Source: Gemmatimonadota bacterium (GTDB lineage: Bacteria > Latescibacterota > UBA2968 > UBA8231). Taken from it: a stretch of DNA of 53,098 bases. The number at the start of each line of letters is the position of its first letter. The first letter of the stretch is position 1. A program made the position numbers and the translations under genes. Positions 37,781 through 53,098 of the stretch are shown in pieces. The notes under the pieces were generated by a model. It saw only the letters and a program-made list of their open reading frames with translations. It searched no databases and was not told where the DNA came from. The DNA is taken from positions 1-53,098 of the forward strand of contig JAYOYH010000033.1 in assembly GCA_038153405.1 (NCBI GenBank), in the 5' to 3' direction.

Positions 37781-38680
37781 ATGCGCGTTAGCTACAGTCC
37801 CTCATACTTCGTAGAACTGCCCGCTAATCACCCCTTTCCGATGGGTAAATTTGCCGCTCTACAGCGCATTCTCTTAGCGGAAAGGCTCGTACTGCCCGAG
37901 CACATTTTCGAACCGGCCGAAGCGGCCTGGGACGATTTGCTTCGCGTGCACGAAGCGCCGTATATAGACAAGCTGCGCCGCGGCGCTCTAGCGCGTCGCG
38001 AGGAGCGCCGCATGGGGCTGCCCTGGTCAGAGGCGCTGCTGCGTCGCTCGCGCCTGGCCGTGCAGGGAACGCTGACGGCGGCCCGCATGGCGCTGGAGGA
38101 TGGCATTGCCGCCAATTTAGCTGGCGGTACGCACCACGCCTTTCCCGGCCACGGCGAGGGCTTTTGCGTATTCAACGACATGGCGGTAGCCATTCGCACC
38201 TTAGTGGCCGAAGGAGCGATAGAGCGGGGTGTGGTAATCGATTTGGATGTCCACCAGGGCAACGGCACGGCGGCGGCGCTGGCCGGTGATCCAATGGCCT
38301 ACACCTTCTCGATGCACGGCGCCAAAAACTATCCCTTTGTCAAAGAGCAGTCATCGCGCGACGTCGAGCTAGAAGATGGCGCGGGCGACGACCAATATGC
38401 GCAGCTACTGGCCGAGCACCTACCGCAGGTTCTCGACGAGGCCCGAGCCGATATCGCCTTTTACTTGGCCGGTGTCGATGTGGTCAAAGGCGATCGCTAT
38501 GGTCGGTTGGCGCTGAGTCGGGAGGGGCTGCGCACGCGCGAGCGCGCGGTCTTAGAGACGCTGGCAGGCAGGGGAACGCCGCTGGTACTGCTGATGTCTG
38601 GAGGTTATGCGCCTACGGCCGATGAGACGGCCGATCTACACGCCGAAGTGCACCGCGCGGCGCGCGAGATCTACGCATAG
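37781..38680 (+). CDS. Histone deacetylase family protein (HDAC11-like)
   Basis: 'HPFPMGKF', 'GGTHHA', 'GFCVFND', 'DLDVHQGNGT', 'GGY'. Confidence 0.92.
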   Translation: MRVSYSPSYFVELPANHPFPMGKFAALQRILLAERLVLPEHIFEPAEAAWDDLLRVHEAPYIDKLRRGALARREERRMGLPWSEALLRRSRLAVQGTLTAARMALEDGIAANLAGGTHHAFPGHGEGFCVFNDMAVAIRTLVAEGAIERGVVIDLDVHQGNGTAAALAGDPMAYTFSMHGAKNYPFVKEQSSRDVELEDGAGDDQYAQLLAEHLPQVLDEARADIAFYLAGVDVVKGDRYGRLALSREGLRTRERAVLETLAGRGTPLVLLMSGGYAPTADETADLHAEVHRAAREIYA

Positions 38681-38690
38681 AAGGCCGCCG

Positions 38691-39647
38691 TTAAGGCGCG
38701 TATACGGTGAATCCAACCGAATCGACTGCCGCAGAGGCGAAAAAGCCTATGCCCCCATCTACATTGAAGCGGGGACGTTGAAACTGATCTCCGAGCAGGC
38801 CACCGCCGCCGCCGCCGCCGTCGCTGTCGGGGTCGGTGCGGATAAAGTCGTACCAGTTTTTATCTAAGGCGTATATCAGAAACTTGTGGCGTCCTTCAAA
38901 GGCGATGCCAAACCAGGGCAAACGCGCGTTTCCATCGCTGATGGCCAGAGGAGGCGACGCGCCCGATCGGTCAAACTCTGCCAGATCGTCTTCTTCTAAG
39001 AAATCGGCTTCAATCAGCAGCGGTGAATCCTCTTCCAGATTGAAAATGGCCAATTGGTAGGCATCGATATCGTTTGCGCTGAGGCGCACTTCGAGCAGAC
39101 CTTGGCGATAGGGTACCTGATTTGTCTGCGCCTCGTAAACGCCGTCTCCCAGTTCGGAAAATAGCGCCAGCTGGCTGTCGACTTGCAGCGTTTCCTCGTC
39201 GAGGAGGAGAAAGCGCTCTACCCTAATGCGCTGTGGCGTGGTTGTTTGCGCGCGCAGAACCTGGCCATCGGGCGTGCTGGCCTCGAGTTCATACAGGCGC
39301 TGCGGCTCGACCATGGGGGCATCGGCCGGCGGCAGGTAGCGCCCCAGCGAATCGGGGTCCGGCGCGTAGCTATAGCTCTGATTGCCGCTGCGCACGACGA
39401 TCTGCGCGTCTACAATAGCCGCTGCTTCGGTCGAGTGCGCAGCGCCCGGTTCCAGCGTGCGCTTGAGAAAGAGGTCGGGTAGCGGTTGGTCGACGGTGAG
39501 GATGGCATCTATAACCAGCACGTCGGCCTCGCTGGGGCCGAAGAGTTCGCCCGGCTTGCGATCGGCCGAGCAGGCGGCTAGCAGTACTAGCAGTGCCCAG
39601 GTGGCACGCGTGCGCAATATGTGGGTTGGCGTATATCGCATGGACAT
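38691..39647 (-). CDS. DUF4249-like lipoprotein (TonB receptor partner)
   Basis: Lipobox LLAAC; C-terminal 'NVDGGIGFF'; start overlaps the receptor stop (TGATG). Confidence 0.78.
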   Translation of the reverse strand: MSMRYTPTHILRTRATWALLVLLAACSADRKPGELFGPSEADVLVIDAILTVDQPLPDLFLKRTLEPGAAHSTEAAAIVDAQIVVRSGNQSYSYAPDPDSLGRYLPPADAPMVEPQRLYELEASTPDGQVLRAQTTTPQRIRVERFLLLDEETLQVDSQLALFSELGDGVYEAQTNQVPYRQGLLEVRLSANDIDAYQLAIFNLEEDSPLLIEADFLEEDDLAEFDRSGASPPLAISDGNARLPWFGIAFEGRHKFLIYALDKNWYDFIRTDPDSDGGGGGGGLLGDQFQRPRFNVDGGIGFFASAAVDSVGFTVYAP

Positions 39648-41884
39648 CAGAAGGAAAAGTTGAGGCCAAACGTCGGTATGACGGGCAGCATTTTAACCAC
39701 TTCGGGCTCCGTGGCCAGATCTTCGGTATTGTACTGGACAAACCACTCGTTGCGCCGACTATAGACGTTGAAAATCTGCACAAAGGCCTCGGCATCTCTG
39801 CTCCATAGGGCAAAGGAGCGGCGCAGGCCGGCATCGATTCGGTGGTAGGGCAAAAGGCGGCCGCTGTTGCGCTCTGCCGGCAGGGCGCGATCCTCGAAAA
39901 TGCCCGTGGCCGGGTCGCGCAGTTGGTAGCGTGCGGCGGCCGGTGTAAAAGCCTGGCCGGTGCCGTAGACAAAACTCGTGCTGGCAATCCACTTGCCGAG
40001 CCGATAGGTGGCGGTGAAAGACGCGTCGTGGCGGCGGTCGTACTTGGGGGGAAAGGTGCGTCCTTCGTTGATTTCGGGGAAGGTGCGCCGCGTCCATCCC
40101 AGCGTATAGCCCAGCCAGCCGCGCAGCCGGCCCGTGCGCTTTTCCAAAAAGAGCTCTAACCCCGTCGCATAGCCGCTGCCGTCCGTCTTAAACACGTCGA
40201 TGGAGCGCGTCTGGTCACTGTCGGCGACGCTGTCGTTGTCGAGTAAGACCAGATTGTCGAGGTCGGTGTAATAGGCCTCGGCACTCAGCCGGTAGCGCTG
40301 CGAGGGCTCCCACTCCAAGCCCGTGACCAACTGCCACGAACGACCCGGTGTCACGCTCTCGTCCAGCGGCACCCAGAAGTCGCCGCCGCTAAAGCCTTCC
40401 GAAGTGACCAACTGCAAATATTGGTGGTAGAGGCCGCCGGCCAGCTTAAAGCGCCAGCCGGGCTGCAGCACTTGCGAAAGAGAAAAGCGCGGCTCCAATA
40501 CTGCGCGCGCCCCCTCGCTGAAGTAGCTAGAGCGCAGGCCAATGCGCAGGTCGGTGAGTGGGGTCATCTGCCAATCGTCCTGCGCGTAGGCCGATAGCAG
40601 AAGGGGGTTGGTATTGAGATCGAACTGTTGTTGGCGATTGAACGAAGAGGCGAAATCGAATGCGTAGTGACTCAGCTGCAAGCCGCTTTTAATCGTGTGG
40701 TTGGAGCCGGCAAAATAGTCGATGTCCGCTTTGAAGGACACGTCGCGGACCTGGTTGCCAAAGTCGATGGGCGTCTCAAAAAAGCTCAGCGCAATATCGC
40801 TCTTATACTCAGAGTAGAAGGCGGTGAAGCGACCAAAGAGCGTCGGCGTGAAAACGCGCTTCCAGCGCCCGCTCACGGCGCGATTGCCCCAGCGAATGTT
40901 GAAGTAGGTCTCCGCGTCGGGGTCGAGGGCAAAGTCGAGCAGGTCGCGCCCCCAATAGGCGCTGAGCACCATGGTGTCGTCATCGCCTAGCGTCCGGTGT
41001 ACCTTAAAATTGAAGTCGTAGAAATAGTAGTCGGGCACGTCGATGCCGTTTCTGCGCACGACGGCCAGCACCGGATCGAGGTAGGTGCGCCGCCCGGCCA
41101 GCAGCCACGAGCCATGCTCTATGGGGCCTTCGGCCAGCAAGCGGCCGGAGATCAGGCTGATGCCGCCGCGACCACTGACGCGGCGGCGGTTGCCCTCGAT
41201 GTTCTGCACGTCGAGCACGGCGCCGAGATTGCCTCCGTACTGAGCGGGATAAGCGCCCTTATAGAAGGTGATGTCTTTGATCGCATCCGGATTGAAGGTC
41301 GAGAAAAAGCCAAAGGCATGCGCCGGGTTGTAGAGCGGCACCTGGTCGAGCAGGATGCGCGTTTGATCGGGGCCGCCGCCGCGCACGTAGAGGCCGCTGC
41401 TAATATCGGAGGCCGACTGCACGCCGGGCAGGAGCTGCAGGCTGCGCAGGAGGTCAGGCTCGCCGATAGCCGGTAGGCGCTCTAGGGTCTTGGCCTGCAG
41501 TGCGGTTACGCTGGCCTGCTGGCGCAGTTCGTCCTGCAGGCGATCGGCTGTGACCACCGTTTCTTCCTCGATGCGGATCAATTCGCTCTGCAGCTCGATA
41601 TCGAGGCGGAGCTGTTGTCCTTGATCGAACTCGACGGTATCGCGCTGCACGCGGTAGCCAATGTAGGAAATCGTCAGCGCATGGCGTCCGGCTGGAATAT
41701 TCTGCACGGCGTAGTAGCCGTCGGCGTTGCTGAGTGCGCCCAGGCGGAGGCTGTCAAAGGAAACGGTTGCGTTGGGCAGGTTTTCGCCGTCTTCGGCGTC
41801 GCGCACAAAGCCGCTGAGCGTGGCTGCAAAAGACGGTTGGCACAGCGAAAGGAGAATCCAGAGGAGTTTACAGCAGGTGCGCAT
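39647..41884 (-). CDS. TonB-dependent receptor with N-terminal carboxypeptidase-regulatory-like domain
   Basis: 'LSGFVRDAEDGENL', plug 'LQLLPGV...YVRGG..DQ', 'KGAYPAQYGG', C-terminal Phe ('GLNFSF'); ATG 41884 overlaps the carH stop. Confidence 0.92.
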   Translation of the reverse strand: MRTCCKLLWILLSLCQPSFAATLSGFVRDAEDGENLPNATVSFDSLRLGALSNADGYYAVQNIPAGRHALTISYIGYRVQRDTVEFDQGQQLRLDIELQSELIRIEEETVVTADRLQDELRQQASVTALQAKTLERLPAIGEPDLLRSLQLLPGVQSASDISSGLYVRGGGPDQTRILLDQVPLYNPAHAFGFFSTFNPDAIKDITFYKGAYPAQYGGNLGAVLDVQNIEGNRRRVSGRGGISLISGRLLAEGPIEHGSWLLAGRRTYLDPVLAVVRRNGIDVPDYYFYDFNFKVHRTLGDDDTMVLSAYWGRDLLDFALDPDAETYFNIRWGNRAVSGRWKRVFTPTLFGRFTAFYSEYKSDIALSFFETPIDFGNQVRDVSFKADIDYFAGSNHTIKSGLQLSHYAFDFASSFNRQQQFDLNTNPLLLSAYAQDDWQMTPLTDLRIGLRSSYFSEGARAVLEPRFSLSQVLQPGWRFKLAGGLYHQYLQLVTSEGFSGGDFWVPLDESVTPGRSWQLVTGLEWEPSQRYRLSAEAYYTDLDNLVLLDNDSVADSDQTRSIDVFKTDGSGYATGLELFLEKRTGRLRGWLGYTLGWTRRTFPEINEGRTFPPKYDRRHDASFTATYRLGKWIASTSFVYGTGQAFTPAAARYQLRDPATGIFEDRALPAERNSGRLLPYHRIDAGLRRSFALWSRDAEAFVQIFNVYSRRNEWFVQYNTEDLATEPEVVKMLPVIPTFGLNFSF

Positions 41885-42840
41885 TATGCCGGGCTGAGCC
41901 TGATGGCCGAGAGCGTTGGTCGCAGCTGCAAGAACTCGTCGATATGGATAGCATTTATATGCTGCAACTGCGTTCGGCACTGCGTCGCACCGGCGCCGCC
42001 CGCTAGGATGATGGCACTGCTTCCCAAGCGCTGGCGCAGCTGGCGCAGCTCCTCTCCAAGGGCTTGTGCATCAATGGAGTAGACGATGCTCAGCGCGACG
42101 ACGCGCGCGCGCTGCCGAAAGGCAGCAGCGGCGATGTCGTCGGCGGCGATATTGCTGCCTAGGTAGGTGGTGCGCCAGCCCTCAGTGGCGGCGAGGGTGG
42201 CGACAAAGAGGGCGCCTAACTCGTGCATTTGCCCCAGCGGTGTAGCCACTAACAGGTGCGGTGCATCGTCGGGTACGCGCAGGGCCGAGCGAATAGTATC
42301 GATAAAGGACCGCACGACGACGGACGCTAAGTGCTCGCTAGCAATGCGCAGCGAGCCGTCTCTCCAGCGCTGGCCAATGGTGGCCATAAGCGGCTCTATG
42401 ACGTGCGAAATAAGGCGATTGTGATCGAATTGGAGCGCGGCCCGCTGCAGTTCGCCTTCAAGGGCCTGCGAGTCGAGCTGCTGCACGGCGTCCATACAGC
42501 GAGCCACAATGGCCTCGGACGATCCCGCCGAGTTGGGCGCATTGCGACCCGGTGCATCGCTGTCGGGTTGATTCGCAGCCGGTTCGGAACTCTCTGCTAC
42601 GAGCGCGCGCAGCTGCTCATCCGATAGGTGGGCAATCTGACCGATGGAGTGTCCGGCACGGGTCGACTGGCACAATAGCCTGAGGCGCACTATGTGGCCT
42701 TCGCTATAGAGGCGTTGCCCGCTGGCCGTGCGCTGGGGCGAAATGGCCGCATAGCGCTTTTCCCAAATGCGAATAACGTGTGCGGTGAGGCCCGTGCGCT
42801 GCGATGCAAGCCTAATAGGGTAAGTAAATGTATTGTCCAC
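41884..42840 (-). CDS. CarH/LitR-type MerR regulator with AdoB12-binding photosensory domain (copy 1)
   Basis: MerR 'IRIWEKRY...RLYS'; W-x9-EH (WRDGSLRIASEH); 'GQMHELG' B12 motif. GTG 42840 aligns with the start of copy 2. Confidence 0.88.
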   Translation of the reverse strand: MDNTFTYPIRLASQRTGLTAHVIRIWEKRYAAISPQRTASGQRLYSEGHIVRLRLLCQSTRAGHSIGQIAHLSDEQLRALVAESSEPAANQPDSDAPGRNAPNSAGSSEAIVARCMDAVQQLDSQALEGELQRAALQFDHNRLISHVIEPLMATIGQRWRDGSLRIASEHLASVVVRSFIDTIRSALRVPDDAPHLLVATPLGQMHELGALFVATLAATEGWRTTYLGSNIAADDIAAAAFRQRARVVALSIVYSIDAQALGEELRQLRQRLGSSAIILAGGAGATQCRTQLQHINAIHIDEFLQLRPTLSAIRLSPA

Positions 42841-42846
42841 AGGGGG

Positions 42847-42874
42847 AATATACCGGGTGTCGACCATTCGTCAA
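42847..42874 (-). promoter_or_regulatory. Sigma70 promoter with 11-bp-spaced TnGAC repeats (putative CarH operator), carH copy 1
   Basis: Minus strand TTGACG-aatgg-TCGACA-cccgg-TATATT, then 6 nt to the GTG. Confidence 0.6.
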
Positions 42875-42934
42875 CGCGAGAAACAGAAGTAGTTTTAATC
42901 CTGTAAGACGCCTAAAAATAGCGACATAAAATAG

Positions 42935-43717
42935 TTAAAGTAAGAAGGCGTGTAAGAAGGCGGCGTTGGCTACCAGCGGGGCTGGAGCGATGACGACTAC
43001 ATACATATAGAGTCGCTGCAGGCGTCGATCCCAGTGGCGTGGCTCTATGAGCAGGGCAAGGCCTTGGATAAGGAAGTACGCTGCCATGGGGCCGAAGTAG
43101 ACTGGGTGGCCCATGAGATAGTGTGGGACGGTCAGAATTAGCTCGTGCCAAATGCCCGAGGCGATAAAGGCGGCCAGCAGACCGAGGCGAGGGTAGCGCA
43201 TAAGGGGAGAGAAAAATATGTGGCGCAGCCACTCGCCGACCCAGCGGTTCCAGCAGCTGCCCCAAAAATGGGCCAGTGAACGAGCGAGCAGGGGGCTGTT
43301 GTGAACAGGGCAGATAAGGCGTCCGCTGCTGAGAAAAATAAGGCGGAAAACAGCCCCCATGGTTTCGGTCAGCACATAAAAGGCTGGGAAGGCCATATAG
43401 GCGCGCACGAAGGGAGGCGGTGCAAAGCGACTGACGATATGCCAATAGAGGGCGTAGGTGCACAGGGATATGAGCAGCCACTGCAGGGCCGTGCGTCCGG
43501 CAAAGGTACAATGGCCGCTTTGCAGCGCAGGGCTACGCAGCCAAGAGCGCGGCGAATAGAAAGGCGCGAGAATGTAGAAGGCAACTTTTTGCGGTATGGG
43601 CAATCGGTAGATGATGCCGCCGATTACTTTGAGCGGTATACCCACCAGAAAATAGGCGGCTGCAAAAGCGAGCGCCCCTCCGATGCTGGGGGCAATGGGT
43701 AGGTGAGCGGTTTCCAT
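42935..43717 (-). CDS. MBOAT family (wax-synthase-like) membrane O-acyltransferase
   Basis: 'SLAHFWG..WN' and 'FIASGIWHE' (catalytic Asn/His motifs); multiple TM helices. Confidence 0.8.
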   Translation of the reverse strand: METAHLPIAPSIGGALAFAAAYFLVGIPLKVIGGIIYRLPIPQKVAFYILAPFYSPRSWLRSPALQSGHCTFAGRTALQWLLISLCTYALYWHIVSRFAPPPFVRAYMAFPAFYVLTETMGAVFRLIFLSSGRLICPVHNSPLLARSLAHFWGSCWNRWVGEWLRHIFFSPLMRYPRLGLLAAFIASGIWHELILTVPHYLMGHPVYFGPMAAYFLIQGLALLIEPRHWDRRLQRLYMYVVVIAPAPLVANAAFLHAFLL

Positions 43718-43772
43718 GGGGCTTAAATAAACGCAATAAAGGCGCGCAGAGAAAACCGCCCGCACCGGGCAC

Positions 43773-43813
43773 AAAAAAAACCGCCGGCGCAATGCCATGT
43801 GCGCCGGCGGTTT
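43773..43813 (-). terminator. Intrinsic terminator after the fasciclin gene
   Basis: Minus strand AAACCGCCGGCGCA-loop-TGCGCCGGCGG followed by T8. Confidence 0.88.
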
Positions 43814-43838
43814 CTGCGATGAAGAAGAGCGGGGTTGC

Positions 43839-44390
43839 TTAGCGGATGGCTTCGCTCTTTACTGCACCCCACGAGTTGTTTTCGACGGCAGTCGGACCGG
43901 CCGGCGGCAGCAAAACGGCATCGATGACGTGAATCACGCCGTTGCTGGCCAGAATGTCCACGGCCGTGACATTGGCGTTGTCGACCATGACGCCGGCATC
44001 GGAGGTCATGATGGTCACAGACGCGCCGTTTACTGTGGCGGCCGAGCTGAGGGTCACGACCTGATCCGAGGTAACGGCACTGGCGACGACGTGATACAAC
44101 AGGATAGAAACGAGCTGGTCTTTATTTTCAGGCAAGAGCAGAGACGCTACCGTACCTTCAGGCAGTTTGGCAAAAGCATCGTCGGTGGGAGCAAATACGG
44201 TGAAAGGCCCTTCGCTCTTCAGTACATCAATTAGGTCGGCAGCCGTCAGAGCAGCAGCCAGCGTATTGAAGGTTCCCGCTTCAACAGCAGTGTCGACGAT
44301 GTCCTTGTCGCTCTGAGCGCTGGCGGTATCGGCGGAGAAGCATAGGCCGGCAGCGACCATAGCGGTGAGGGCAAAGCGTGCGATTTTCAT
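43839..44390 (-). CDS. Secreted fasciclin (FAS1) domain protein
   Basis: Signal peptide; '[13 protein letters not shown]', 'LLYHVV', '[13 protein letters not shown]'; GGAG RBS. Confidence 0.93.
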
Positions 44391-44444
44391 GACAAGTCTC
44401 CGAGTTGTGCGCTTAGTGGCGCGTTGTTTAAGTTGCTTGTCAAG

Positions 44445-44483
44445 AGAATACTCAAGGTCTACCATTTGTCAATGTTTTGTCTA
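44445..44483 (-). promoter_or_regulatory. Fasciclin promoter overlapped by three 11-bp direct repeats (putative CarH operator)
   Basis: Minus strand TAGACAaaaca-TTGACAaatgg-TAGACCttgag-TATTCT; the middle repeat is the -35. Confidence 0.72.
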
Positions 44484-44491
44484 TAAAAAAA

Positions 44492-45430
44492 CTACAGTGT
44501 GGCTATTTTTTGCAGCAATTGTGCGAGAAGGGCCAGATTGTCTATGCGAAGGGCATCTATCTCATCTATAACGGCTTGGAAGTGTGGGGCCATGCGGCCG
44601 CCGATGAGCAGGGGGGTGTCGGGCAGCGCTTGCCGCAGTTTGGTCAATTCGCCGCGCAGCAGGGTGTCGTCTTCCAGATAAATGATACTGAGGGCCACGG
44701 CTTTGGCGGAGTGGGTTAGCGCCGCTGCGGCAATTTCCTCGGCCGGTAGGTTGGGACCCAGATAGAGCGTATTCCAGCCTGCACTTTGCGCGGTCAGGCT
44801 GGCCAATAAGGCGCCGACTTCGTGCCACTGTCCGGCCGGTGTTGTGCTGATGAGCAGAGGGGCGTTTGCGGGGGGCCGATTGGTCGAGTGTAGGGTGCCG
44901 AGGAACGTTCGAACGATCGAGGTCGCCAAGTGTTCGTCGGCTACGCGGAGGGTGCCGTCGCTCCACCTATCCCCGACTGCTCTCATCAGGGGATCAATTA
45001 CGTCGACCAGCAGGCGATTGCGCCCCATGGCGACTTCGGCCGCCATGAGCTCACGGGTGAGTTCATGGCCGTTCATGTCGGATACGGCGCGCAAGCAGCG
45101 CTGCACAAAATCGTGCGGTTGGCCCTCTGGCAGGGGCGGTTGGTCAGGCGATTGTTCCTGCATGGGGGTGGCGAGAGGACGCTCGGAGAGCAATTCCCTG
45201 AGGTCGGTGTCCGACAGGTGTGCTATGCTCCCTATGCTGTGGCCCTGTTGCGTCGCTCGGTGCAGATTGGCCAGGCGCTCTATATCGTCGCCCGAGTATA
45301 GCCTGCGGTTGGTGGCCGTGCGCTCCGGTGACACTGCGCCATAGCGCTTTTCCCAAACGCGAATGGCATGCGGACTCAGTCCGGTTCGCTGTGCGACCAT
45401 TTTCATGGCATATCGCTTCTCGCTTGTCAT
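44492..45430 (-). CDS. CarH/LitR-type MerR regulator with AdoB12-binding photosensory domain (copy 2)
   Basis: 'IRVWEKRY...RRLYS'; W-x9-EH (WSDGTLRVADEH); 'GQWHEVG'; 'YLGPNLP'. Confidence 0.9.
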   Translation of the reverse strand: MTSEKRYAMKMVAQRTGLSPHAIRVWEKRYGAVSPERTATNRRLYSGDDIERLANLHRATQQGHSIGSIAHLSDTDLRELLSERPLATPMQEQSPDQPPLPEGQPHDFVQRCLRAVSDMNGHELTRELMAAEVAMGRNRLLVDVIDPLMRAVGDRWSDGTLRVADEHLATSIVRTFLGTLHSTNRPPANAPLLISTTPAGQWHEVGALLASLTAQSAGWNTLYLGPNLPAEEIAAAALTHSAKAVALSIIYLEDDTLLRGELTKLRQALPDTPLLIGGRMAPHFQAVIDEIDALRIDNLALLAQLLQKIATL

Positions 45431-45436
45431 ATCGGA

Positions 45437-45531
45437 TTAATATGAATAGGTGGCTGACTTGTCAAACAAAAAACCGCAAAAATCGCAAATAAAACATTGA
45501 CAAAGATTAGACAATACTTTACCTTGTCTAA
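45437..45531. promoter_or_regulatory. Divergent sigma70 promoters (carH2 and sigma gene) with putative CarH operator
   Basis: Plus strand: TTGACA(45497)-17-TACCTT, TAGACA 11 bp after the -35, and palindrome TTAGACAA-N9-TTGTCTAA (45507-45531). Minus strand: TTGACA(45465)-17-TATTAA, then 6 nt to the carH2 ATG. Confidence 0.7.
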
Positions 45532-45577
45532 GTAAAGAGCGTTATAAATTAATTTGTCTACTTTTAGGAGGTGCGCG

Positions 45578-46432
45578 ATGCGCGATATCGAAAAGAATCA
45601 GAAAGGTGCGAAAAGCAGCGATATCCTTGATGTATATTGGGAAGAAATCAAAAACAACCAGCCGCTTAAACGACAGGAAGAAATTGAGCTGTTCGCGCGC
45701 ATTCGCCGCGGAGACAAAGTCGCTCTTGAGACTCTCGTCAACGCCAATCTGCGCTTCGTCGTCAGCGTTGCACGCGAATATTGTCCGCAGGATGGCCCCT
45801 TACTCATGGATCTGATCGCCGAGGGCAATATGGGGCTTATACGCGCCGTCAACAAGTTTGATGAGACGCGCGGTTTTAAGTTCATCACATACGCTGTGTG
45901 GTGGATTCGCCAAGCCATTCTCAAGGCACTGCCCCGCGATTTTCGCGCTGCGCGCCTGCCGATGAGTCACATTCACGACCAGCACGCCGTAGAACGCGAG
46001 ACCGCCAACTTAAGCCAGACCTTAGGGCGTCAGCCCACGCTATACGAGATCTCTGATTGCATGGATATGACCTCCGATCGCCTGCGCAATGCCATGGAGG
46101 CTGGGCTGCAGGATATGTCGCTCGACGCACCGCTGTTTGACGGCGAAGACACGCCCGCACTTGAGGCATTTGCCATGGGCGGAGACGATGTGGTCGTCGA
46201 TCAGGAGGAGCTTGTTGAAGTGCTCAGCGAGAGCCTGCGCAAGCTCGAACCGCGCGAGATGCAGATTATCAGCGAGTACTTTGGTTTGCAAAGTGGAAGC
46301 TGCAAAACGTTGGAGGAAATTGGCAGCGAAATGGGTGTAACGCGCGAACGCGTTCGCCAGCTGCGCAACCGCGCGCTGCAGAAGATGCGCAGCCACCTAG
46401 AAGAGCTAGAATTCGAAGTGTCGGCGAATTAA
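45578..46432 (+). CDS. RpoD/SigA-family sigma70 factor lacking region 1.1
   Basis: Region 1.2 'LDVYWEEI...L..EE', region 2 'NLRFVVSVA...DLIAEGN.GL...YAVWWIRQAI', region 4 'TLEEIG..GVTRERVRQ'; AGGAGG RBS. Confidence 0.93.
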   Translation: MRDIEKNQKGAKSSDILDVYWEEIKNNQPLKRQEEIELFARIRRGDKVALETLVNANLRFVVSVAREYCPQDGPLLMDLIAEGNMGLIRAVNKFDETRGFKFITYAVWWIRQAILKALPRDFRAARLPMSHIHDQHAVERETANLSQTLGRQPTLYEISDCMDMTSDRLRNAMEAGLQDMSLDAPLFDGEDTPALEAFAMGGDDVVVDQEELVEVLSESLRKLEPREMQIISEYFGLQSGSCKTLEEIGSEMGVTRERVRQLRNRALQKMRSHLEELEFEVSAN

Positions 46433-46443
46433 ATCGGGCGCAA

Positions 46444-47022
46444 TTGAACGGTCTATTTGCACGGCTAGCTGGGGTCGCGGTGCTATGCGCCGCAGTGGCA
46501 ATAACTGCACAGGAGGAGAGGGCAGTGACGTATCAGGAGGCCCTGCAGCGCACGGCGCATGCAGCCCAGCAAGCGCCGGTACCCGGCAGCGAAGCCGAGG
46601 CGCGCGCCACGGCTGCATTCACCGACTTTGTTCGCCAGATGCGCGCTGAGTCCATTGCGGCCCACGCGCGCCGCGTTTACGCCGAAGATGCTTACTTCAA
46701 CGATACGGTAAAAGAAATCGAAGGCAGCGAAGCGATCGCCGAATACTTGGCCGAGAGCCTAGGGGCGACAGAAGAGGTCAATGTCGAAGTGGTTGACGTG
46801 GTCCGTTCCGGCATGGACTTCTACTACCGCTGGGTGATGGACATCAAGTTTCGCAGTCTAAATGGCGGCAATTGGGCGCGCTCAGAGGGCATGAGCCAAG
46901 TTCGCTTTAATGGCGAGGGGCGCGTCGTCTTGCACCGGGACTTTTGGGATGCGGCAGGCGGACTCTTTGCCTACATGCCGGTCGTTGGCTGGCTAATCAA
47001 GTGGATCAAGGGGCGCATTTGA
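46444..47022 (+). CDS. SnoaL-like/NTF2 family protein with N-terminal signal peptide
   Basis: 'VYAEDAYFND', 'G.S.VRFN.EG.V..HRDFWDAA'; typical of photolyase/cfa neighbourhoods. Confidence 0.8.
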   Translation: MNGLFARLAGVAVLCAAVAITAQEERAVTYQEALQRTAHAAQQAPVPGSEAEARATAAFTDFVRQMRAESIAAHARRVYAEDAYFNDTVKEIEGSEAIAEYLAESLGATEEVNVEVVDVVRSGMDFYYRWVMDIKFRSLNGGNWARSEGMSQVRFNGEGRVVLHRDFWDAAGGLFAYMPVVGWLIKWIKGRI

Positions 47023-48440
47023 CATCGGCCTGCGCCATCGTCTGGCTGCGTCGCGACCTGCGCTTGAGCGACCACGCAGCTTTGGCCGAGGCGTCTGCGC
47101 GCGGTCGGGCTATTTTACCCGTATACATAGACGATCCCGACGAAGAAGGCCCGTGGCCGCAGGGCGCAGCCAGCCGCTGGTGGTTGCACCACTCGCTTAA
47201 ATCACTGGACGCCGACCTGCGCGCGCGCGGCAGTCGGCTGCTGTTGTACAGGGGACGGGCCGTCGAGGTGTTGGTAGATTTAGCGCGCGACTCGGGTGCG
47301 GACAGCATCTATTTTCAACGCCGCACTGAGCCTGCGGCGCGCGCCAACGAGGAGCGCGTCGAGCGCGCGCTGGCATCGGCCGCTATCACCGGGCATGCGC
47401 ACGACGGTTGGCTGCTCTTTGAGCCGCACTCCATTGCCACAGGGCAGGGCCGTCCGTATCAGGTGTTTACCCCCTTTTGGAAGCGCTGTCTGCAGGAAGG
47501 GCTCGACGATCAACTCGCTCAAGTGCCTTCGGCATTGCCGGCGCCCAATCGCTGGCCCAATTCGCTCTCCCTAAACGAACTGCAGTTGCTGCCCTCCATC
47601 GACTGGGACGGCGGTCTGCGCGCAGAATGGCAGCCGGGTGAAGCGGGAGGGCAGAAGCTGCTGCAGCGCTTTGTCGGGGAAGTCGTCGATCGCTATGGCG
47701 AAGGGCGCGACTGCCCTTCCGAGCGCTGGACGTCGCGGCTGTCGCCGCATCTGCACTTTGGCGAGATCAGCCCGCGCCAGGCGGTGTCCGCCCTGCGCGA
47801 TGTGGCCGGCGAGGGCGCCGCCGCTTTTTTGCGCGAGCTGGGTTGGCGCGAATTCTCCCATCATTTGCTCTATCACTTTCCGCACTTAGACGCCGAGCCG
47901 CTGCGCCCGCAGTTTGCCGATTTCCCCTGGTGCGAAGACCCCGCTGGCCTGCGCGCCTGGCAGCGCGGCCGCACCGGCTATCCTTTGGTCGACGCCGGCC
48001 TGCGCCAGCTGTGGCAGACGGGGTGGATGCACAATCGCGTGCGCATGGTCGCTGCTTCGTTCCTAGTGAAAGACCTGTTGATAGACTGGCGTCGCGGTGC
48101 TGAGTGGTTCTGGGATACGCTGGTCGATGCCGACCTGGCCAACAACAGCATGGGTTGGCAGTGGGTAGCCGGATGCGGCGCCGATGCAGCGCCCTTTTTT
48201 CGCATTTTTAACCCCGTTACGCAGGGGGAGAAATTCGACCGCGAAGGGACCTACGTCCGCCGCTGGGTGCCCGAGTTGGCGCAGCTGCCCTCGCGCTACA
48301 TTCACGCGCCCTGGCGCGCGCCAGACCACGTGCTGCGCGCGGCTGGGGTCCTGCTTGGACAAACCTATCCCGAACCGATTGTCGATCATGCCTTTGCGCG
48401 CGACCGCGCGCTGGCCGCCCTGCAAAAGAGCAAGGGCTGA
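47019..48440 (+). CDS. phrB: Deoxyribodipyrimidine (CPD) photolyase
   Basis: 'WLRRDLRLSDH', 'TSRLSPHLHFGEIS', 'WQTGWMHNRVRM', 'DADLANN..GWQW', 'FRIFNP'; TTG start overlaps the upstream TGA. Confidence 0.95.
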   Translation: MTSACAIVWLRRDLRLSDHAALAEASARGRAILPVYIDDPDEEGPWPQGAASRWWLHHSLKSLDADLRARGSRLLLYRGRAVEVLVDLARDSGADSIYFQRRTEPAARANEERVERALASAAITGHAHDGWLLFEPHSIATGQGRPYQVFTPFWKRCLQEGLDDQLAQVPSALPAPNRWPNSLSLNELQLLPSIDWDGGLRAEWQPGEAGGQKLLQRFVGEVVDRYGEGRDCPSERWTSRLSPHLHFGEISPRQAVSALRDVAGEGAAAFLRELGWREFSHHLLYHFPHLDAEPLRPQFADFPWCEDPAGLRAWQRGRTGYPLVDAGLRQLWQTGWMHNRVRMVAASFLVKDLLIDWRRGAEWFWDTLVDADLANNSMGWQWVAGCGADAAPFFRIFNPVTQGEKFDREGTYVRRWVPELAQLPSRYIHAPWRAPDHVLRAAGVLLGQTYPEPIVDHAFARDRALAALQKSKG

Positions 48441-48443
48441 GGC

Positions 48444-48863
48444 ATGCTGCTCCTGCTGCACGCGGCGGCGACCTGCTATATGTGCGGGGTGATATGGTTT
48501 GTGCAGTTGGTGCACTATCCGCTATTTGCCAGCGTCGAACGGGGTCACTTTATCGCCTACCAGCGCGAGCACGTGCGGCGCACGGGATGGGTAGTCGGAC
48601 CGGCGATGCTGGCAGAAGGTGCGTCAGCGCTGGCGCTGTGCCTGCTTGCGCCAGACGGGCTATCGCCGCTCGCGGCCTGGGGCGGATTGGCCCTGTTGGC
48701 GGTCATATGGCTGTCGACGTTCTTCTGGCAGGTGCCCAGTCACAACGCGCTGCTAAACGGTTTTGACGCGGAGCGGCACGCCTGGTTGGTGCGCAGCAAC
48801 TGGGTTCGCACCGTTCTGTGGAGTGCGCGCGCTGTGCTGGCCCTTGCCTATTTGCCCTCTTAG
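48444..48863 (+). CDS. Small four-TM hypothetical membrane protein
   Basis: 'GVIWFVQLVHYPLF', 'QVPSH..L', 'NWVRT.LW'; starts 3 nt after the photolyase. Confidence 0.75.
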   Translation: MLLLLHAAATCYMCGVIWFVQLVHYPLFASVERGHFIAYQREHVRRTGWVVGPAMLAEGASALALCLLAPDGLSPLAAWGGLALLAVIWLSTFFWQVPSHNALLNGFDAERHAWLVRSNWVRTVLWSARAVLALAYLPS

Positions 48864-49894
48864 GAGCGCTTGGCCATACAGTAGTGCGATACCCACCATT
48901 CCTGTCCCTCGTCATAGCCAAAGAGCTCTTCGCAGGACATAAAGAAAATGCGCCAGCGCTGGCACCAAATGGCGCTGTTGGCCGCGCCATAGGTCTCGGC
49001 AAATAGCGCTTCGATGGCGTTGCGCTGCGCGTCTAATTTTTCTAGCCAGTGGCGGGCCGTGCGCCCGTAGTGGCTGCCGCTGATCCGCCAGTGTCCCTGC
49101 AGAAAAAAATCTTCTTGTACGTAGTGCAGTAAGTCGTCGCTGGGCATCATTCCGCCAGTAAAGAAGTACTTGCTCATCCAGTCATCGTCGTTCTTAACCT
49201 CAAATAAATAGGGATGGCGGTTGTGGACGAAGATGTGGATAAAGAGCTTGCCGTCGTCGCGTAGCCAACCGGCGATGCGCTTGAGCATGGCGCGGTAGTT
49301 GCGCAGATGCTCAAACATCTCCACCGAAACGACGCGATCATAGGTACCTTCGGCTGTGAATTCGTTCATATCGCAGGTGATGATGCGCACGTTATCCAAC
49401 CCGCGCTCGGCGCAGCGCGCCTCGATAAAGTGGCGCTGTGGGGCCGAATTGGAAACGGCGGTAATGCGGCTAGCGGGATAGCGCTCGGCCATCCACAGCG
49501 TCAGTGAACCCCATCCACACCCCAGTTCGAGTACGTCCATCCCGTCGGTCAATTCGGCGCGCTCTCCGTAGAGTTCGAGCATAGCTGCTTCGGCTTCGTC
49601 TAGCGTCTCGCGTCCGGTCGGATAATAGCAGGCGCTGTATTTGAGATGGCGTCCCAGCACCTTTTCAAAAAAAGCCGGGGGCAACTCGTAGTGCTGTTCG
49701 TTGGCTTCGCGCGTGTGGAGGGCAATTGGGCTTTCGTCCATGGCTGCGATAAAGCGGTGTAAGTGCTGCGTGCGCGCCTGGCAGTCACCGGGGTCGATTT
49801 CGCGGATGCGATTGCGCAAGAGGGAGCGAATGCCCGTGCGGATCAGCGCGTCGGGCAATAGGCCGCGCTCGGCCCATTGCAGTGCGTGGTTCAT
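48860..49894 (-). CDS. Cyclopropane-fatty-acyl-phospholipid synthase family SAM methyltransferase (short, CNMT-like type)
   Basis: 'ANEQHYELP', 'KYS', 'LELGCGWGS', 'SVEMFEH', 'FFTGG.MPS'. Confidence 0.9.
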   Translation of the reverse strand: MNHALQWAERGLLPDALIRTGIRSLLRNRIREIDPGDCQARTQHLHRFIAAMDESPIALHTREANEQHYELPPAFFEKVLGRHLKYSACYYPTGRETLDEAEAAMLELYGERAELTDGMDVLELGCGWGSLTLWMAERYPASRITAVSNSAPQRHFIEARCAERGLDNVRIITCDMNEFTAEGTYDRVVSVEMFEHLRNYRAMLKRIAGWLRDDGKLFIHIFVHNRHPYLFEVKNDDDWMSKYFFTGGMMPSDDLLHYVQEDFFLQGHWRISGSHYGRTARHWLEKLDAQRNAIEALFAETYGAANSAIWCQRWRIFFMSCEELFGYDEGQEWWVSHYCMAKRS

Positions 49895-50715
49895 GGCGAG
49901 ACCTCTCGTGTACGGGCGTCTGCAGCCCGCTGGACGGGTTCTTTGGGAAAAAAGGGAAAGAAGGCGTGCGTTCGCTGCTGATAGGCGCGGTATTCATCGC
50001 CGCGACTCTGGACAGCGCGCTTTTCGGCGTAGGGAATGCCGGTGACGGAAAAGAGCAGGTAGAGCATGAGAGCCGGTGCCAGTAGGCTGAGCCAGCCCCA
50101 AGCGAAGGGGGTGGCCAGCGGCACGTAGGCAAACCAGTGCAGCCACTCAAAAAAGTAGTTGGGATGGCGCGAGTAGCGCCATAGGCCCTCGGCGCAGGTG
50201 TGGCCTGCGTTATTCGGGTCGCGGCGGAAACGCGCCAGTTGCGCATCGGCCAGGCTCTCGCCCGCCGTGGCCAGCAGCCAGATGCCGGCGGCGAGCGCGT
50301 CGAGTGCTCCCAGCGGTTTGGGGTTGGCCGCGCCGAGTAGAATGGGCAGCGAGAAGAAGGCGATCAGCAGCGCCTGCGCTTGGTAGAGCAGCAGGAAGTT
50401 GCGCTGTGCGTGCAGGCCCCACTGCTGGCGCAACATGGCGTAGCGCCCGTCTTCATGCGCGCCGCGGCGCGCGTGCAGATGCCAGGTCAGGCGCAGGGAC
50501 CACAGGGCGGCCAGCGCGCCGACGAGCAGGCGCCGCTGGGGATCGCCCTCGCTCTGCCAGGCCACATAGAGCGCCGTCAGGCCAATGCCGCTAGACCAGC
50601 CCATATCAACCGGCGTGGCGTCCAGCGTTTGCCGCTGGCGCGCGTAGAGTACTCCCATCAGCAGGGAGGCGCCGAGCAGGCCGTGCCACAGCAGGTGGAG
50701 ATCGTATGCTTCCAT
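49891..50715 (-). CDS. DUF1295 (steroid 5-alpha-reductase-like) membrane protein
   Basis: 'EDGRY', 'E.LADAQL..F', 'GLWRYSRHPNYFFEW', 'TGIP'. Confidence 0.92.
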   Translation of the reverse strand: MEAYDLHLLWHGLLGASLLMGVLYARQRQTLDATPVDMGWSSGIGLTALYVAWQSEGDPQRRLLVGALAALWSLRLTWHLHARRGAHEDGRYAMLRQQWGLHAQRNFLLLYQAQALLIAFFSLPILLGAANPKPLGALDALAAGIWLLATAGESLADAQLARFRRDPNNAGHTCAEGLWRYSRHPNYFFEWLHWFAYVPLATPFAWGWLSLLAPALMLYLLFSVTGIPYAEKRAVQSRGDEYRAYQQRTHAFFPFFPKEPVQRAADARTREVSP

Positions 50716-50733
50716 TGCGCGGCCGAGAGGCGC

Positions 50734-51999
50734 TCAGGCGAATTCGGCGTGGCGGCGGTTCTGCGGTTTGGCCAGCAGAATCTGCGCGTCGCCGATATAG
50801 CGCTCGGCAAAGCCGGCTTCGCAGTAGCAGAAGTAGAATGCCCACATGCGGATAAATTCTTCGTTGAACCCTTGCGCGCGCACTTGATCTAGGTGTTCGA
50901 AAAAACGCTCGCGCCAGGTGCGCAGCGTGCGCGCGTAGTGTGGGCCAATATCGCGCAGGTCGACGATGCGCAGATCCGTTTCGCGCGCCAGCGCCTGCGC
51001 CATGGCCGTGACCGAGGGTATGCAGGAACCGGGAAATATATAGCGTTTGATAAAGTCGACGGTGTGCGTATGCGCTTCGAAAAACCAATCGCCAATCGTA
51101 ATGGCCTGCAGCAGCATAAGTCCGTCGGGCTTGAGCAGGCGGCCGCACTGGCGAAAGTAGTCGTCGTAGTAGTGGTGGCCGACCGCTTCGATCATCTCGA
51201 TGGATACGAGCTTGTCGTACTGGCCCTGTAGATCGCGGTAGTCGGAGCGCAGCACCTCTATCTGGTCGGAGAGGCCCGCTTGGGCAATGCGCTCGACGGC
51301 CAGTTTGTGCTGCTCTTGCGAAATGGTCGTCGTAGTGATGCGACAGCCGTAGTTCTTGGCTGCGTGCAGGGCGAACCCACCCCAGCCCGTGCCAATTTCC
51401 AGCAGGTGGTCGTTCGGACCGAGTTCGAGCAGTTGGCAAATGCGCTCGACCTTGTGGTGCGAAGCCTCTTCCAGCGTGCTCTGCGGCGTGGGGAAAATAG
51501 CCGACGAATACATGAGATTATCGTCGAGAAAGAGGCGGAAGAATTCGTTGCCGAGATCGTAGTGCGCGGCGATGTTGCGCTGGCTGTTGGACGTGGTGTT
51601 GCGATGCAAAACGTGAAAGAGGTGATGGGCTGGTTTGGCCAGCCAGCCCCAGCCGCGCTCCATCTTGTCGCGCGCCTCGCCGTTTTGTACGACGATGCGA
51701 CACAGCGCGGTTAGGTCGTCCGTCTCCCACAGGCCGTCTATATAGGCCTCGGATGCGCCGAGACTACCGCCTAGGGCCATGTAGCGGTAAAAGCGCGGGT
51801 CGCACACGCGCAGACGGGCGTGCAGTGGATCGCCAGTGCGGCCAAATTCGAGCGTTTGTTCGCCGTCCTCGACGATAAGATAGCCTTTTGTGAAGCGCGC
51901 CAGCTTGGCCAATACCAATCGTCGGGCCCACGCGTTGGGAAGAGTGGTGGGCTGTGGGCGGGCTGCTTTCGGCGTCGTGTCCAGCGTCGTTTGGCTCAT
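50734..51999 (-). CDS. Cyclopropane-fatty-acyl-phospholipid synthase family methyltransferase (Cfa/UfaM-like)
   Basis: 'NIAAHYDLGNEFF', 'MYSSA', 'LEIGTGWGG', 'SIEMIEAVG', 'FIKRYIFPG', 'YCEAGF'. Confidence 0.93.
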   Translation of the reverse strand: MSQTTLDTTPKAARPQPTTLPNAWARRLVLAKLARFTKGYLIVEDGEQTLEFGRTGDPLHARLRVCDPRFYRYMALGGSLGASEAYIDGLWETDDLTALCRIVVQNGEARDKMERGWGWLAKPAHHLFHVLHRNTTSNSQRNIAAHYDLGNEFFRLFLDDNLMYSSAIFPTPQSTLEEASHHKVERICQLLELGPNDHLLEIGTGWGGFALHAAKNYGCRITTTTISQEQHKLAVERIAQAGLSDQIEVLRSDYRDLQGQYDKLVSIEMIEAVGHHYYDDYFRQCGRLLKPDGLMLLQAITIGDWFFEAHTHTVDFIKRYIFPGSCIPSVTAMAQALARETDLRIVDLRDIGPHYARTLRTWRERFFEHLDQVRAQGFNEEFIRMWAFYFCYCEAGFAERYIGDAQILLAKPQNRRHAEFA

Positions 52000-52008
52000 A
52001 GTACACCT

Positions 52009-52761
52009 CTACTCGGCGATGGATGGATGGGGATAAAAGGGGATGCGCTTCAACCACAGGCGCAGTGCCTGCCAGTATATGGCACCGGTGATGCGCGCCG
52101 TCATCAGCGGGTACTGTGCCAGCACGCGTGCCAGCGCGCGCGCGCTGATTTCCGTGCGCTGGAGATTCATCGTCGCGTCAAAGAGCGCCGCATTGCGCTC
52201 GCGGCTCTGCATGTGCACGCTCAGTTGGTGGGTCGGGGCAACAAAGTGCCAGGTATAGTGCTGATCCATACCCATAAAGGGCGACACGTGAAAGGCTTTG
52301 TCGAATTGGTAGCGCTTTTTACTCGCCCTGCCCTCGTTGTGCGCCTCGTCGAGCACGTAGGCGTGCTGCTCGCCCCATGGCGTGTTGTTGATTTCGGCTA
52401 TGATGGCTTCTAGTCCACCGTCTTCGCCGTAGCAGTAGTAGAAGCTGACGGGGTTGAAGCGGTAGCCGAAGTAGCGCATGTGCGTCAGCAGACACACCGG
52501 TCCAAGCGGGCGGCGGCCGCAGTCGGCTTCGACTAAATCGCGGGCGCTCTCCTGCAGGGGTTGGCGCGGATCGCCGATGTGGTCGGCGCGGCGAAACTGG
52601 GCCACGTTGGCACGGTGTGCTGACCACAGGCGGTAGCGGTCAAATAGATGCGGCAATTCGTCCAGATCGAGGTACATCATAAACAGGCGATAGCTGAAAG
52701 CGTGCTCGACGGGAAGAAAGCGGCGGTGGCGCACGCGCCCTTCGTAGATGCAGCTATGCAC
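52009..52761 (-). CDS. DUF1365 family protein (UfaO-like)
   Basis: 'HRRF.P..HAF.Y', 'FNPVSFYYC', 'EINNTPWGE', 'K.FHVSPF', 'IYWQALRLW'. Confidence 0.92.
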
Positions 52762-53098
52762 GAGCGGTCGCTCCTCGTTCTATAGCATCGGCTACCTCGA
52801 TGCCTGAGCGCGCTCCGTCTTCGTGAAAGCCGTAGCCCCAGTAGGCACCGCAGTAGTGCGTGCGCCGCACGCCGCTGATCTCGCCGCGCCGCTTCTGAGC
52901 GTCCAGTGCGCGTAGGTCGTATATCGGGTGGTGATAGGTCATGCGCTGCACGACGTGGCGCTCGTCAATTTCATCCTGGCGGTTGAGGCTGACGCAAAAG
53001 GGCAGCCGGCTGCTCAAGCTTTGCAGGATGTTCATATTGTAGGTGACCGTGGGGGCGCTGGACCCAGCTGCTGGTAGGTAGTAGTTCCAACTCGCCCA
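52754..53098 (-). CDS. FAD-dependent oxidoreductase (amine-oxidase family, UfaD-like), C-terminal part
   Basis: 'WASWNY', 'TYNMNILQ', 'VSLN', 'YHHP', '[14 protein letters not shown]'; 5' end outside the window. Confidence 0.88.

Follow-up and report, generated by a model that had tools for sequence, protein, structure and literature searches.

A putative CarH-controlled photoprotection island with furan-type lipid genes in a Latescibacterota genome

The window analysed here is a stretch of 53,098 nt that makes up the entire contig JAYOYH010000033.1 (C33) of a Latescibacterota genome assembly (G000; 4.86 Mb, 93% complete), and its end (38691-53098) carries an island of genes that includes two CarH-type regulators, CarH-A and CarH-B. 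We consider it likely that this island is a photoprotection regulon, repressed by CarH carrying adenosylcobalamin (AdoB12) and released by light, in which furan-type lipids take the place of carotenoids. In the dark, CarH-A would bind AdoB12 and sit on 11-bp repeats lying over the -35 boxes of the fasciclin gene and of the sigma-snoaL-photolyase operon; light would free these two promoters and probably the neighbouring furan fatty acid operon too. The furan route would run through methylation by UfaM, desaturation by UfaD and oxygenation by UfaO, perhaps with a second methylation, and its products would fill the singlet-oxygen-scavenging slot that carotenoids occupy in canonical CarH systems. 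The sigma factor might act as a downstream amplifier, like RpoHII below RpoE.

CarH regulators, operator repeats and the family series

The features of the island that bear directly on its control are as follows.

41884..42840, minus strand: CarH-B, 318 amino acids; MerR domain, four-helix cap and B12 Rossmann domain (Pfam, alignment)
42847..42874, minus strand: carH-B promoter TTGACG-16-TATATT with a weak two-repeat operator (promoter scan, alignment of relatives)
44445..44483, minus strand: fasciclin promoter TTGACA-16-TATTCT with three tandem 11-bp repeats, TAGACA, TTGACA (the -35 box) and TAGACC (motif and promoter scans)
44492..45430, minus strand: CarH-A (Pfam; signature of PMC11796333)
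45437..45465, minus strand: carH-A promoter TTGACA-17-TATTAA (read from the sequence; -35 box conserved)
45497..45525, plus strand: sigma-operon promoter, TTGACA (-35 box, repeat 1), TAGACA (repeat 2, 11 bp further) and a putative -10 box TACCTT (motif scans)

Both regulators consist of MerR, B12-binding_2 and B12-binding domains (Pfam), and the nearest solved structure to each is that of T. thermophilus CarH. Both carry a MerR-domain helix of the RxWERRY type (RVWEKRY and RIWEKRY in the two paralogs) and keep the adenosyl cap W-x9-EH, a motif which, in the excerpted text of PMC9304148, is used to tell CarH from CarA. The light-response signature excerpted from PMC11796333 has four elements (GxxW, EH, GxxH and GxxxP), all of which are present in CarH-A; because of this and of its nearest structure, we read CarH-A as a probable photoreceptor. 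CarH-B has three of the four, with GSNIA in place of GxxxP, and is for this reason classed as a CarH-like paralog and not as a photoreceptor; the proline is kept in two of the seven CarH-B copies. The first-pass annotation had proposed dual AdoB12 photoreceptors, a proposal that is supported for CarH-A by its signature and is not established for CarH-B, whose own operator is weak as well. B12 binding and photolysis are predicted for CarH. In the classic motif D/ExHx2G-x41-SxT/V-x22-27-GG the His, Gly, Ser and GG are in place and the first residue is Gln, as it is in all 28 aligned rows, proteins beside crt genes included, some of these rows having been picked with a Gln-containing pattern.

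The copies of CarH-A and CarH-B form separate clades (support 100/99 and 93/90, respectively), and the two genes lie 1.6 kb apart. In both genes the start codon is found 6-7 nt past the -10 box, likewise in the aligned relatives of the genus, and the two mRNAs are likely leaderless. The closest named record (L001) has a CarH identity of 80%. Members of the same CarH clade occur in Verrucomicrobiia (L005, L009) beside photolyase, ABC1 kinase and TIGR01777-like genes, and the gammaproteobacterial copies (L007, L010, L020) have lost the Trp of W-x9-EH. As to the cofactor, a cobalamin riboswitch on contig C69 leads genes for an ABC ATPase, BtuF-like and BtuC-like proteins (both assigned by eye) and PduO, which makes an AdoB12 supply in G000 plausible. 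The CarH-type control suggested at first pass was supported, and this salvage operon gives a route to AdoB12. In this locus (L136, C69:12100-16279) a small gene lies between the BtuC-like gene and pduO.

The published consensus of the CarH operator, as excerpted, is nnnnTnnACAn, spanning the -35 box. Tandem 11-bp TnnACA repeats overlap the -35 boxes of the fasciclin promoter (three repeats) and the sigma-snoaL-photolyase promoter (two repeats), and both sets are kept in six aligned genus genomes. The shared operator-like motif of the first-pass annotation gave four matches in the window with at most one mismatch, against 0.94 ± 0.99 expected, and one of 100 shuffles reached four; the three perfect matches sit on these same two promoters. 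Since the strict count in the whole genome is also four and not above the counts at other spacings (0-5), it is the position of the motif and not its number that we take as evidence. The fasciclin promoter is the best operator match genome-wide, and with a matrix trained on relatives alone the three best hits in G000 all fall in the island (27.2, 24.7 and 20.2 bits; next hit, 18.0). The motif is strong at fasciclin and sigma but weak at the carH-B promoter (9.6 bits against 20-27), and the carH-A promoter has no clear operator (6.8 bits). The putative -10 box of the sigma operon, TACCTT, agrees with the consensus at three of six positions and is absent from the report of the promoter scan. Further candidate CarH sites, one of the strict pattern at C11:7553 and two 18-bit matrix hits on C1 and C8, were rejected as background.

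In the family to which the genus belongs, at least one tandem operator site was found in all 41 fetched CarH loci and in none of seven CarH-less loci carrying lipid, photolyase or receptor genes. Across 30 loci that played no part in defining the repeat pattern, period 11 gave 64 hits, and periods 9, 10, 12 and 13 gave 5, 0, 17 and 2, respectively. At the promoter of the lipid operon, repeats on the reverse strand follow the -10 box closely in G002, G004 and G005, and the closest relative, G001, has none; because of this, and because that promoter is unassembled in G000, we can only infer direct CarH control of the lipid operon in the latter.

A full CarH was detected in 41 of the 76 family genomes and a DUF1365 match in 40, two of them as fragments; the two occur together in 36 genomes, 31 have no match to either, and CarH stands alone in 5 and DUF1365 in 4. 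The carH surroundings that were fetched measure 4-40 kb, and many are ended by contig ends. Within them, the neighbours at the 41 loci are the TonB receptor (31), DUF1365 (29), the DUF4249 lid (25), fasciclin (20), sigma (13), photolyase (11), MBOAT (6, seen in this genus only) and crtB (2). The layouts include a single operon fasciclin-carH-desaturase-ufa-receptor-lid, carH facing sigma-ufa, and carH-receptor facing desaturase-ufa; outside the family, CarH lies beside ufa genes in one Acidobacteriota locus (L019). A photolyase match was obtained in 18 of the 41 CarH genomes and in 4 of the 35 others; in several closed genomes CarH and ufa genes occur without a photolyase. In G007 CarH was not found, the island being broken there by contig ends, and this genome was not counted as a loss.

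Two comparisons within this series argue for the regulon proposed above. In G010 and G023, carH-receptor-lid faces crtI-crtB and a lycopene cyclase gene, with no DUF1365; the CarH is of the same QxH type and the same repeats precede the crtI-crtB genes. The second is G003 (98% complete), which has lost CarH, operator and photolyase together. It keeps the receptor, lid, MBOAT, SnoaL and lipid operon, and of carH-B, sigma and photolyase only C-terminal remnants are left; its stretch gave no match to carH-A, fasciclin or SDR/DUF2867 and no operator. The GC content of this locus is 0.42, compared with 0.51-0.61 in the CarH-bearing members of the genus, and its decay was counted as a single event.

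The first-pass annotation had reported neither carotenoid genes nor RpoE-ChrR in view, and genome searches agreed with it. Phytoene/squalene synthase was found in none of eight genus genomes, with a control matched in 8 of 14, and nothing of the crtI family exceeded the cut-off in G000. No PF12973 cupin match was obtained in G000, and TIGR02451 exceeded its cut-off in none of 41 genomes, with a Caulobacter control matched; several of the searched genomes are incomplete. G000 holds four other sigma factors of extracytoplasmic function (ECF) size, unlinked to the island. A rhodopsin search was negative in 41 genomes, its control also matching nowhere. An RpoE-type promoter pattern gave no match against 0.41 expected, too few to discriminate. 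Mutual exclusion of carotenoid and furan genes at the level of whole genomes was considered and rejected, PF00494 being present in 38 of the 76 family genomes, mostly unlinked, with and without CarH; it is only the CarH-linked slot that alternates between the two.

Gene content and transcription of the island

On the minus strand the island comprises carH-B, the TonB receptor gene and the DUF4249 lipoprotein gene, then MBOAT, fasciclin and carH-A. Divergent from carH-A on the plus strand are sigma, snoaL, photolyase and a gene for a 139-amino-acid protein, and converging on these from the minus strand are the FAD (flavin adenine dinucleotide) oxidoreductase, DUF1365, Cfa/UfaM-like, DUF1295 and second methyltransferase genes. 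Every gene listed in the first-pass annotation was recovered at its place by Pfam and NCBIfam searches, and the gene at 48444-48863, whose product belongs to no Pfam family, was added. The second gene that had been called Cfa-like does belong to the CMAS methyltransferase family, but its closest solved structures are coclaurine N-methyltransferases. The remaining features are listed below.

38691..39647, minus strand: DUF4249 lipoprotein, putative lid of the TonB receptor (PF14054)
39647..41884, minus strand: TonB-dependent receptor, 745 amino acids, forming a BT2172-like pair with DUF4249 (CarbopepD_reg and Plug, Pfam)
42935..43717, minus strand: MBOAT_2 membrane acyltransferase, about 260 amino acids (Pfam)
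43776..43817, minus strand: terminator after fasciclin, hairpin and T-run (alignment of relatives, ends of RNA contigs)
43839..44390, minus strand: secreted fasciclin, 183 amino acids (PF02469; start checked)
45578..46432, plus strand: RpoD-like non-ECF sigma-70 factor, 284 amino acids (Pfam, NCBIfam, tree)
46444..47022, plus strand: SnoaL-like (NTF2-fold) protein (PF12680, SnoaL_2)
47019..48440, plus strand: photolyase, 473 amino acids (Pfam, NCBIfam, structure search)
48444..48863, plus strand: predicted membrane protein, 139 amino acids (no Pfam family; kept in relatives)
48860..49894, minus strand: second S-adenosylmethionine methyltransferase, CMAS family, coclaurine-N-methyltransferase-like (Pfam)
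49891..50715, minus strand: DUF1295 membrane protein (PF06966)
50734..51999, minus strand: Cfa/UfaM-like fatty-acyl methyltransferase (PF02353)
52009..52761, minus strand: DUF1365, UfaO-like oxygenase (PF07103)
52754..53098, minus strand: UfaD-like FAD oxidoreductase, last 114 codons (cut by the contig end)

The lipid operon is likely to make furan fatty acids, as predicted from its order FAD oxidoreductase-DUF1365-methyltransferase, which equals ufaD-ufaO-ufaM (RPA2571-2570-2569); the assignment rests on family and gene order, without direct alignment to the Rhodobacter proteins. According to the excerpted text of PMC7380195, the product of ufaD-ufaO-ufaM is a furan fatty acid, which singlet oxygen consumes, and UfaO contains DUF1365. 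The Cfa/UfaM-like protein scored under every NCBIfam Cfa cut-off. The second methyltransferase is 28% identical to it, the identity of FufM to UfaM having been reported as 26%, and a FufM-like role of the second enzyme is possible.

The window ends inside the FAD-oxidoreductase gene, at the contig end, and the cut protein aligns at 93% identity with the C-terminal end of an Amino_oxidase-family protein that is complete in a relative. The remainder of the operon, promoter included, was not found elsewhere in the 93%-complete assembly and no contig overlaps; the G000 contigs gave no match to the portion of the FAD gene that lies beyond the cut, nor to the SDR/DUF2867 gene that follows in relatives. 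The same island order was found in five of the seven other genus genomes, three of them with the island split over two contigs. Beyond the FAD gene there is a desaturase gene and a divergent SDR/DUF2867 gene in G001, G002, G004 and G006, and SDR/DUF2867 only in G005, and unrelated genes follow. The suggestion to inspect the sequence beyond 53098 for crt or rpoE-chrR genes meets the contig end, and in these relatives neither lies just outside the island. A fatty acid desaturase of 519 amino acids with a C-terminal extension is encoded at 19327-20886 of the window; it is unlinked and shares about 50% identity with the desaturase that relatives carry in the island.

The best solved relative of the photolyase is 4U63 (E 9e-145), followed by plant cryptochromes. 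Like 4U63, the enzyme is presumably a class III cyclobutane pyrimidine dimer (CPD) photolyase. The neighbours of the 139-amino-acid protein in the Atlas are unnamed, with Anthrone_oxy on 11% of the top cluster, a lead only. A tail of the form TAVE..SWG.[VI]K on the fasciclin (43839-43900) is common to 13 open reading frames of G000 and is perhaps a lineage-specific sorting signal. The fasciclin terminator (43776-43830, minus strand) has an invariant loop, the invariant CTTCATCGC just upstream and compensatory stem changes in the genus copies; it is a single copy in the genome, has no Rfam match, and is possibly a 3' untranslated-region RNA element. Rfam gave no match anywhere in 38000-53098.

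The genes for carH-B, the receptor and DUF4249 are linked by stop-start overlaps: TAATG couples carH-B to the receptor, and the start of DUF4249 overlaps the receptor stop. CarH-B is a diverged duplicate that probably autoregulates this receptor-lid operon. The predicted model of the DUF4249 protein (predicted local distance difference test score, 90) has two immunoglobulin-like domains, and its best match is VIA (Z 7.8); the matches are generic folds of that kind and give no clue to the ligand. BtuB was tried as an identity for the receptor and rejected, the score with TIGR01779 being 26 bits against a cut-off of 599.7, the weakest of seven matches in the genome. Many loci of genus g14 (L108-L123) have two TonB receptors of this subfamily, one divergent from the operator and one ending the lipid operon, and in G055 of the same genus the lipid operon is reduced to a scrap.

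Twenty runs from 12 studies hold the window stretch or part of it; the 12 runs holding at least half are metagenomes from estuaries, seawater, marine samples and ballast water, and two of these may be sources. Four of six RNA runs were used, and contig depth was not used for ranking genes. RNA contigs near-identical to the window cover fasciclin in all four and in three of them end at 43814-43817, just before the terminator; over the sigma-snoaL-photolyase operon they begin at 45547 and 45551 in two runs. The covered bins numbered 25, 26, 15 and 10 of 30 per run, compared with 8, 11, 4 and 0 of 30 for a control stretch, and most of carH-A was uncovered in the four runs, which is no evidence either way. 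The island is thus likely transcribed; because the runs were found by using this stretch, the coverage speaks for transcription only and not for induction.

Alternative readings

Several points weigh against the light-released furan regulon. The family genomes are kin, so that the counts given above are not independent. Both CarH-A and CarH-B have Gln for D/E of D/ExH and lack the His after Trp, and they score 122 and 101 bits with the NCBIfam CarH equivalog against a cut-off of 400; the His after Trp also varies in the proven photoreceptor CtMerR (PMC11796333, as excerpted). The -35 hexamer TTGACA is itself one repeat, which inflates the link between motif and promoter, and the repeats missing from the lipid-operon promoter of G001 count here as well. 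Lipid genes occur without CarH in G003 and G013, and therefore a CarH-independent use of them has to be assumed. A photolyase match is missing in 23 of the 41 CarH-bearing genomes, several of them closed, and therefore light need not be the signal everywhere.

A two-tier cascade, in which CarH would control sigma, fasciclin and photolyase alone and the induced sigma, not CarH, would drive the lipid operon and other genes such as a photolyase-like gene on contig C28, is a tentative possibility. The sigma is a full-length sigma-70 factor (regions 1.2, 2, 3 and 4), one of nine RpoD-like paralogs in G000 (about 280-340 amino acids, on nine contigs). For the cascade speak the 13 of 41 loci in which carH faces sigma, the grouping of the island sigmas from nine loci (support 88/91), the lack of repeats at the lipid promoter of G001, and the C28 gene, which is present without an operator in five of the six dual-CarH genus genomes. 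Against it, 28 of the 41 loci show no sigma in the fetched stretch, many loci have repeats directly before the lipid operon or carH heading it, the repeats of G002, G004 and G005 lie just behind the -10 box of that operon, no promoter motif specific to the island sigma was found, and its region 2.4 and 4.2 residues resemble those of other paralogs. The sigma is not needed to explain the photolyase, because the two share one operon, which follows the operator immediately. The first-pass proposal that the sigma forms part of the regulon stands as to its presence in the island, not as to its need. G007 gave one RpoD-like sigma match only, with an internal stop. The C28 gene (in locus L097, C28:9939-16055) encodes a FAD-binding protein that resembles photolyases but has no N-terminal domain, has nitroreductase, SDR and renalase-like oxidoreductase genes as neighbours, and is a candidate target of the island sigma; the operator hits in two of five such loci are single and inside coding sequence.

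It is unlikely, in our judgement, that the regulators, perhaps CarH-B above all, sense the availability or oxidation state of cobalamin and not light. Without AdoB12 the apo-repressor would leave DNA, and the signal for the regulon, TonB importer included, would be a lack of B12 or the loss of the cofactor by oxidation. The TonB receptor is indeed the commonest carH neighbour (31 of 41 loci), no TonB receptor was seen in the B12 operon behind the C69 riboswitch, five of seven CarH-B copies have lost the GxxxP proline, and the 23 CarH genomes without photolyase fit as well. However, the island receptor is the weakest BtuB match of the genome, in G003 the receptor has outlasted CarH and the photolyase decayed together with CarH, the same CarH type stands at carotenoid operons, and CarH-A retains the adenosyl-capping W-x9-EH.

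An extension of the photoprotection reading, which we regard as speculative and improbable as a whole, would make CarH a portable light switch with a fixed partner, the TonB receptor-DUF4249 importer, and an exchangeable output, mostly furan and in two genera carotenoids; CarH-B would have given up part of the light pocket and become the sensor of the importer, and CarH-A would drive an RpoD-like sigma with a wider regulon of its own. If so, B12 photoreception would for the first time be linked to an outer-membrane transporter, this importer, whose cargo would be a corrinoid or a lipid precursor.

It is very unlikely that the product of the lipid genes is a methyl-branched or cyclopropane fatty acid serving general membrane adaptation, and that these genes only happen to adjoin a small CarH-photolyase unit. 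For this reading, they persist without CarH in G003 and G013, and the desaturase, DUF1295 and second methyltransferase lie outside the three-enzyme pathway excerpted from PMC7380195; against it, the gene order equals ufaD-ufaO-ufaM and DUF1365 accompanies CarH in 29 of 41 loci with at least four different layouts.

Comparison with known systems

In Streptomyces coelicolor, LitR-LitS is said to pair a B12-type MerR regulator with an adjacent sigma gene in the light response, as in the island; LitS is reportedly an ECF sigma driving crt genes, whereas the island sigma is full-length and RpoD-like.

The combination of parts had not been recognised at first pass as one already described. The literature searched on B12-type CarH with cyclopropane or furan genes, fasciclin or photolyase, and on Latescibacter photolyase, describes no such combination, and surveys of class I-V LitR may list B12-type LitR beside ufa genes; novelty was overstated in so far as LitR control of photolyase and ufa genes has been published for Pseudomonas (PMC9758184, as excerpted). 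The parts are known, and the wiring alone is new and apparently recurrent. What stands out is the exchange of output within one family, the steady link to the importer, the diverged second CarH and the decayed copy. If the regulon is as proposed, B12 photoreception would extend from carotenoid control to furan-lipid antioxidant defence in an uncultured coastal lineage without detected carotenoid genes. The family would then offer a natural series, with furan or carotenoid output, one or two CarH proteins, presence or absence of sigma and a decayed copy, that serves the question of how a singlet-oxygen effector set is rewired, and the TonB receptor-DUF4249 subfamily would gain a hint of function in light stress. 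None of these readings implies a new mechanism.

The receptor-lid pair resembles BT2172-BT2173 of B. thetaiotaomicron, a non-SusC receptor followed by a DUF4249 lipoprotein (bioRxiv 10.1101/2023.03.17.533168; PMC11003636); the likeness is one of gene pair, and the excerpted preprint text names no cargo and does not connect the pair with CarH or light. In Pseudomonas putida and P. mendocina, the repressor of the photolyase, FAD oxidoreductase and ufaM genes, which have TTGAC-N16 promoters, is also of the MerR/LitR kind (class II LitR, PplR/PmlR), and photolyase and ufaM are light-induced there without a B12 module (PMC9758184). Class II LitR keeps the helix bundle only and is released by a LOV anti-repressor, whereas the island CarH has the whole B12-binding module; no sigma, fasciclin or TonB receptor is named for these regulons in the excerpts of that paper.

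With CarH, or class I LitR (T. thermophilus CarH, PDB 5C8D/3WHP; myxobacterial CarH, PMC9304148, as excerpted), the island regulators share domain order, the RxWExRY helix, W-x9-EH, the lower-ligand His and tandem 11-bp TnnACA repeats that include the -35 box. The island differs in having two paralogs, QxH for D/ExH and no His after Trp, and in its targets, which are photolyase, sigma, fasciclin, TonB receptor and furan-type lipid genes, with no crt in the genus.

The effectors match those of the RpoE-ChrR regulon of Rhodobacter sphaeroides, as recognized at first pass: the excerpted Table 1 of PMC7074977 has photolyase, cfaS (ufaM), RSP_1091/1090 (ufaD/ufaO), fasciclin (RSP_1409) and rpoHII, the last for a further sigma of non-ECF type, and the island has a counterpart to each (see also PMC7380195). 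No ChrR was found in the genome of the island, where control of this shared effector set would be by derepression at the DNA and not by anti-sigma proteolysis.

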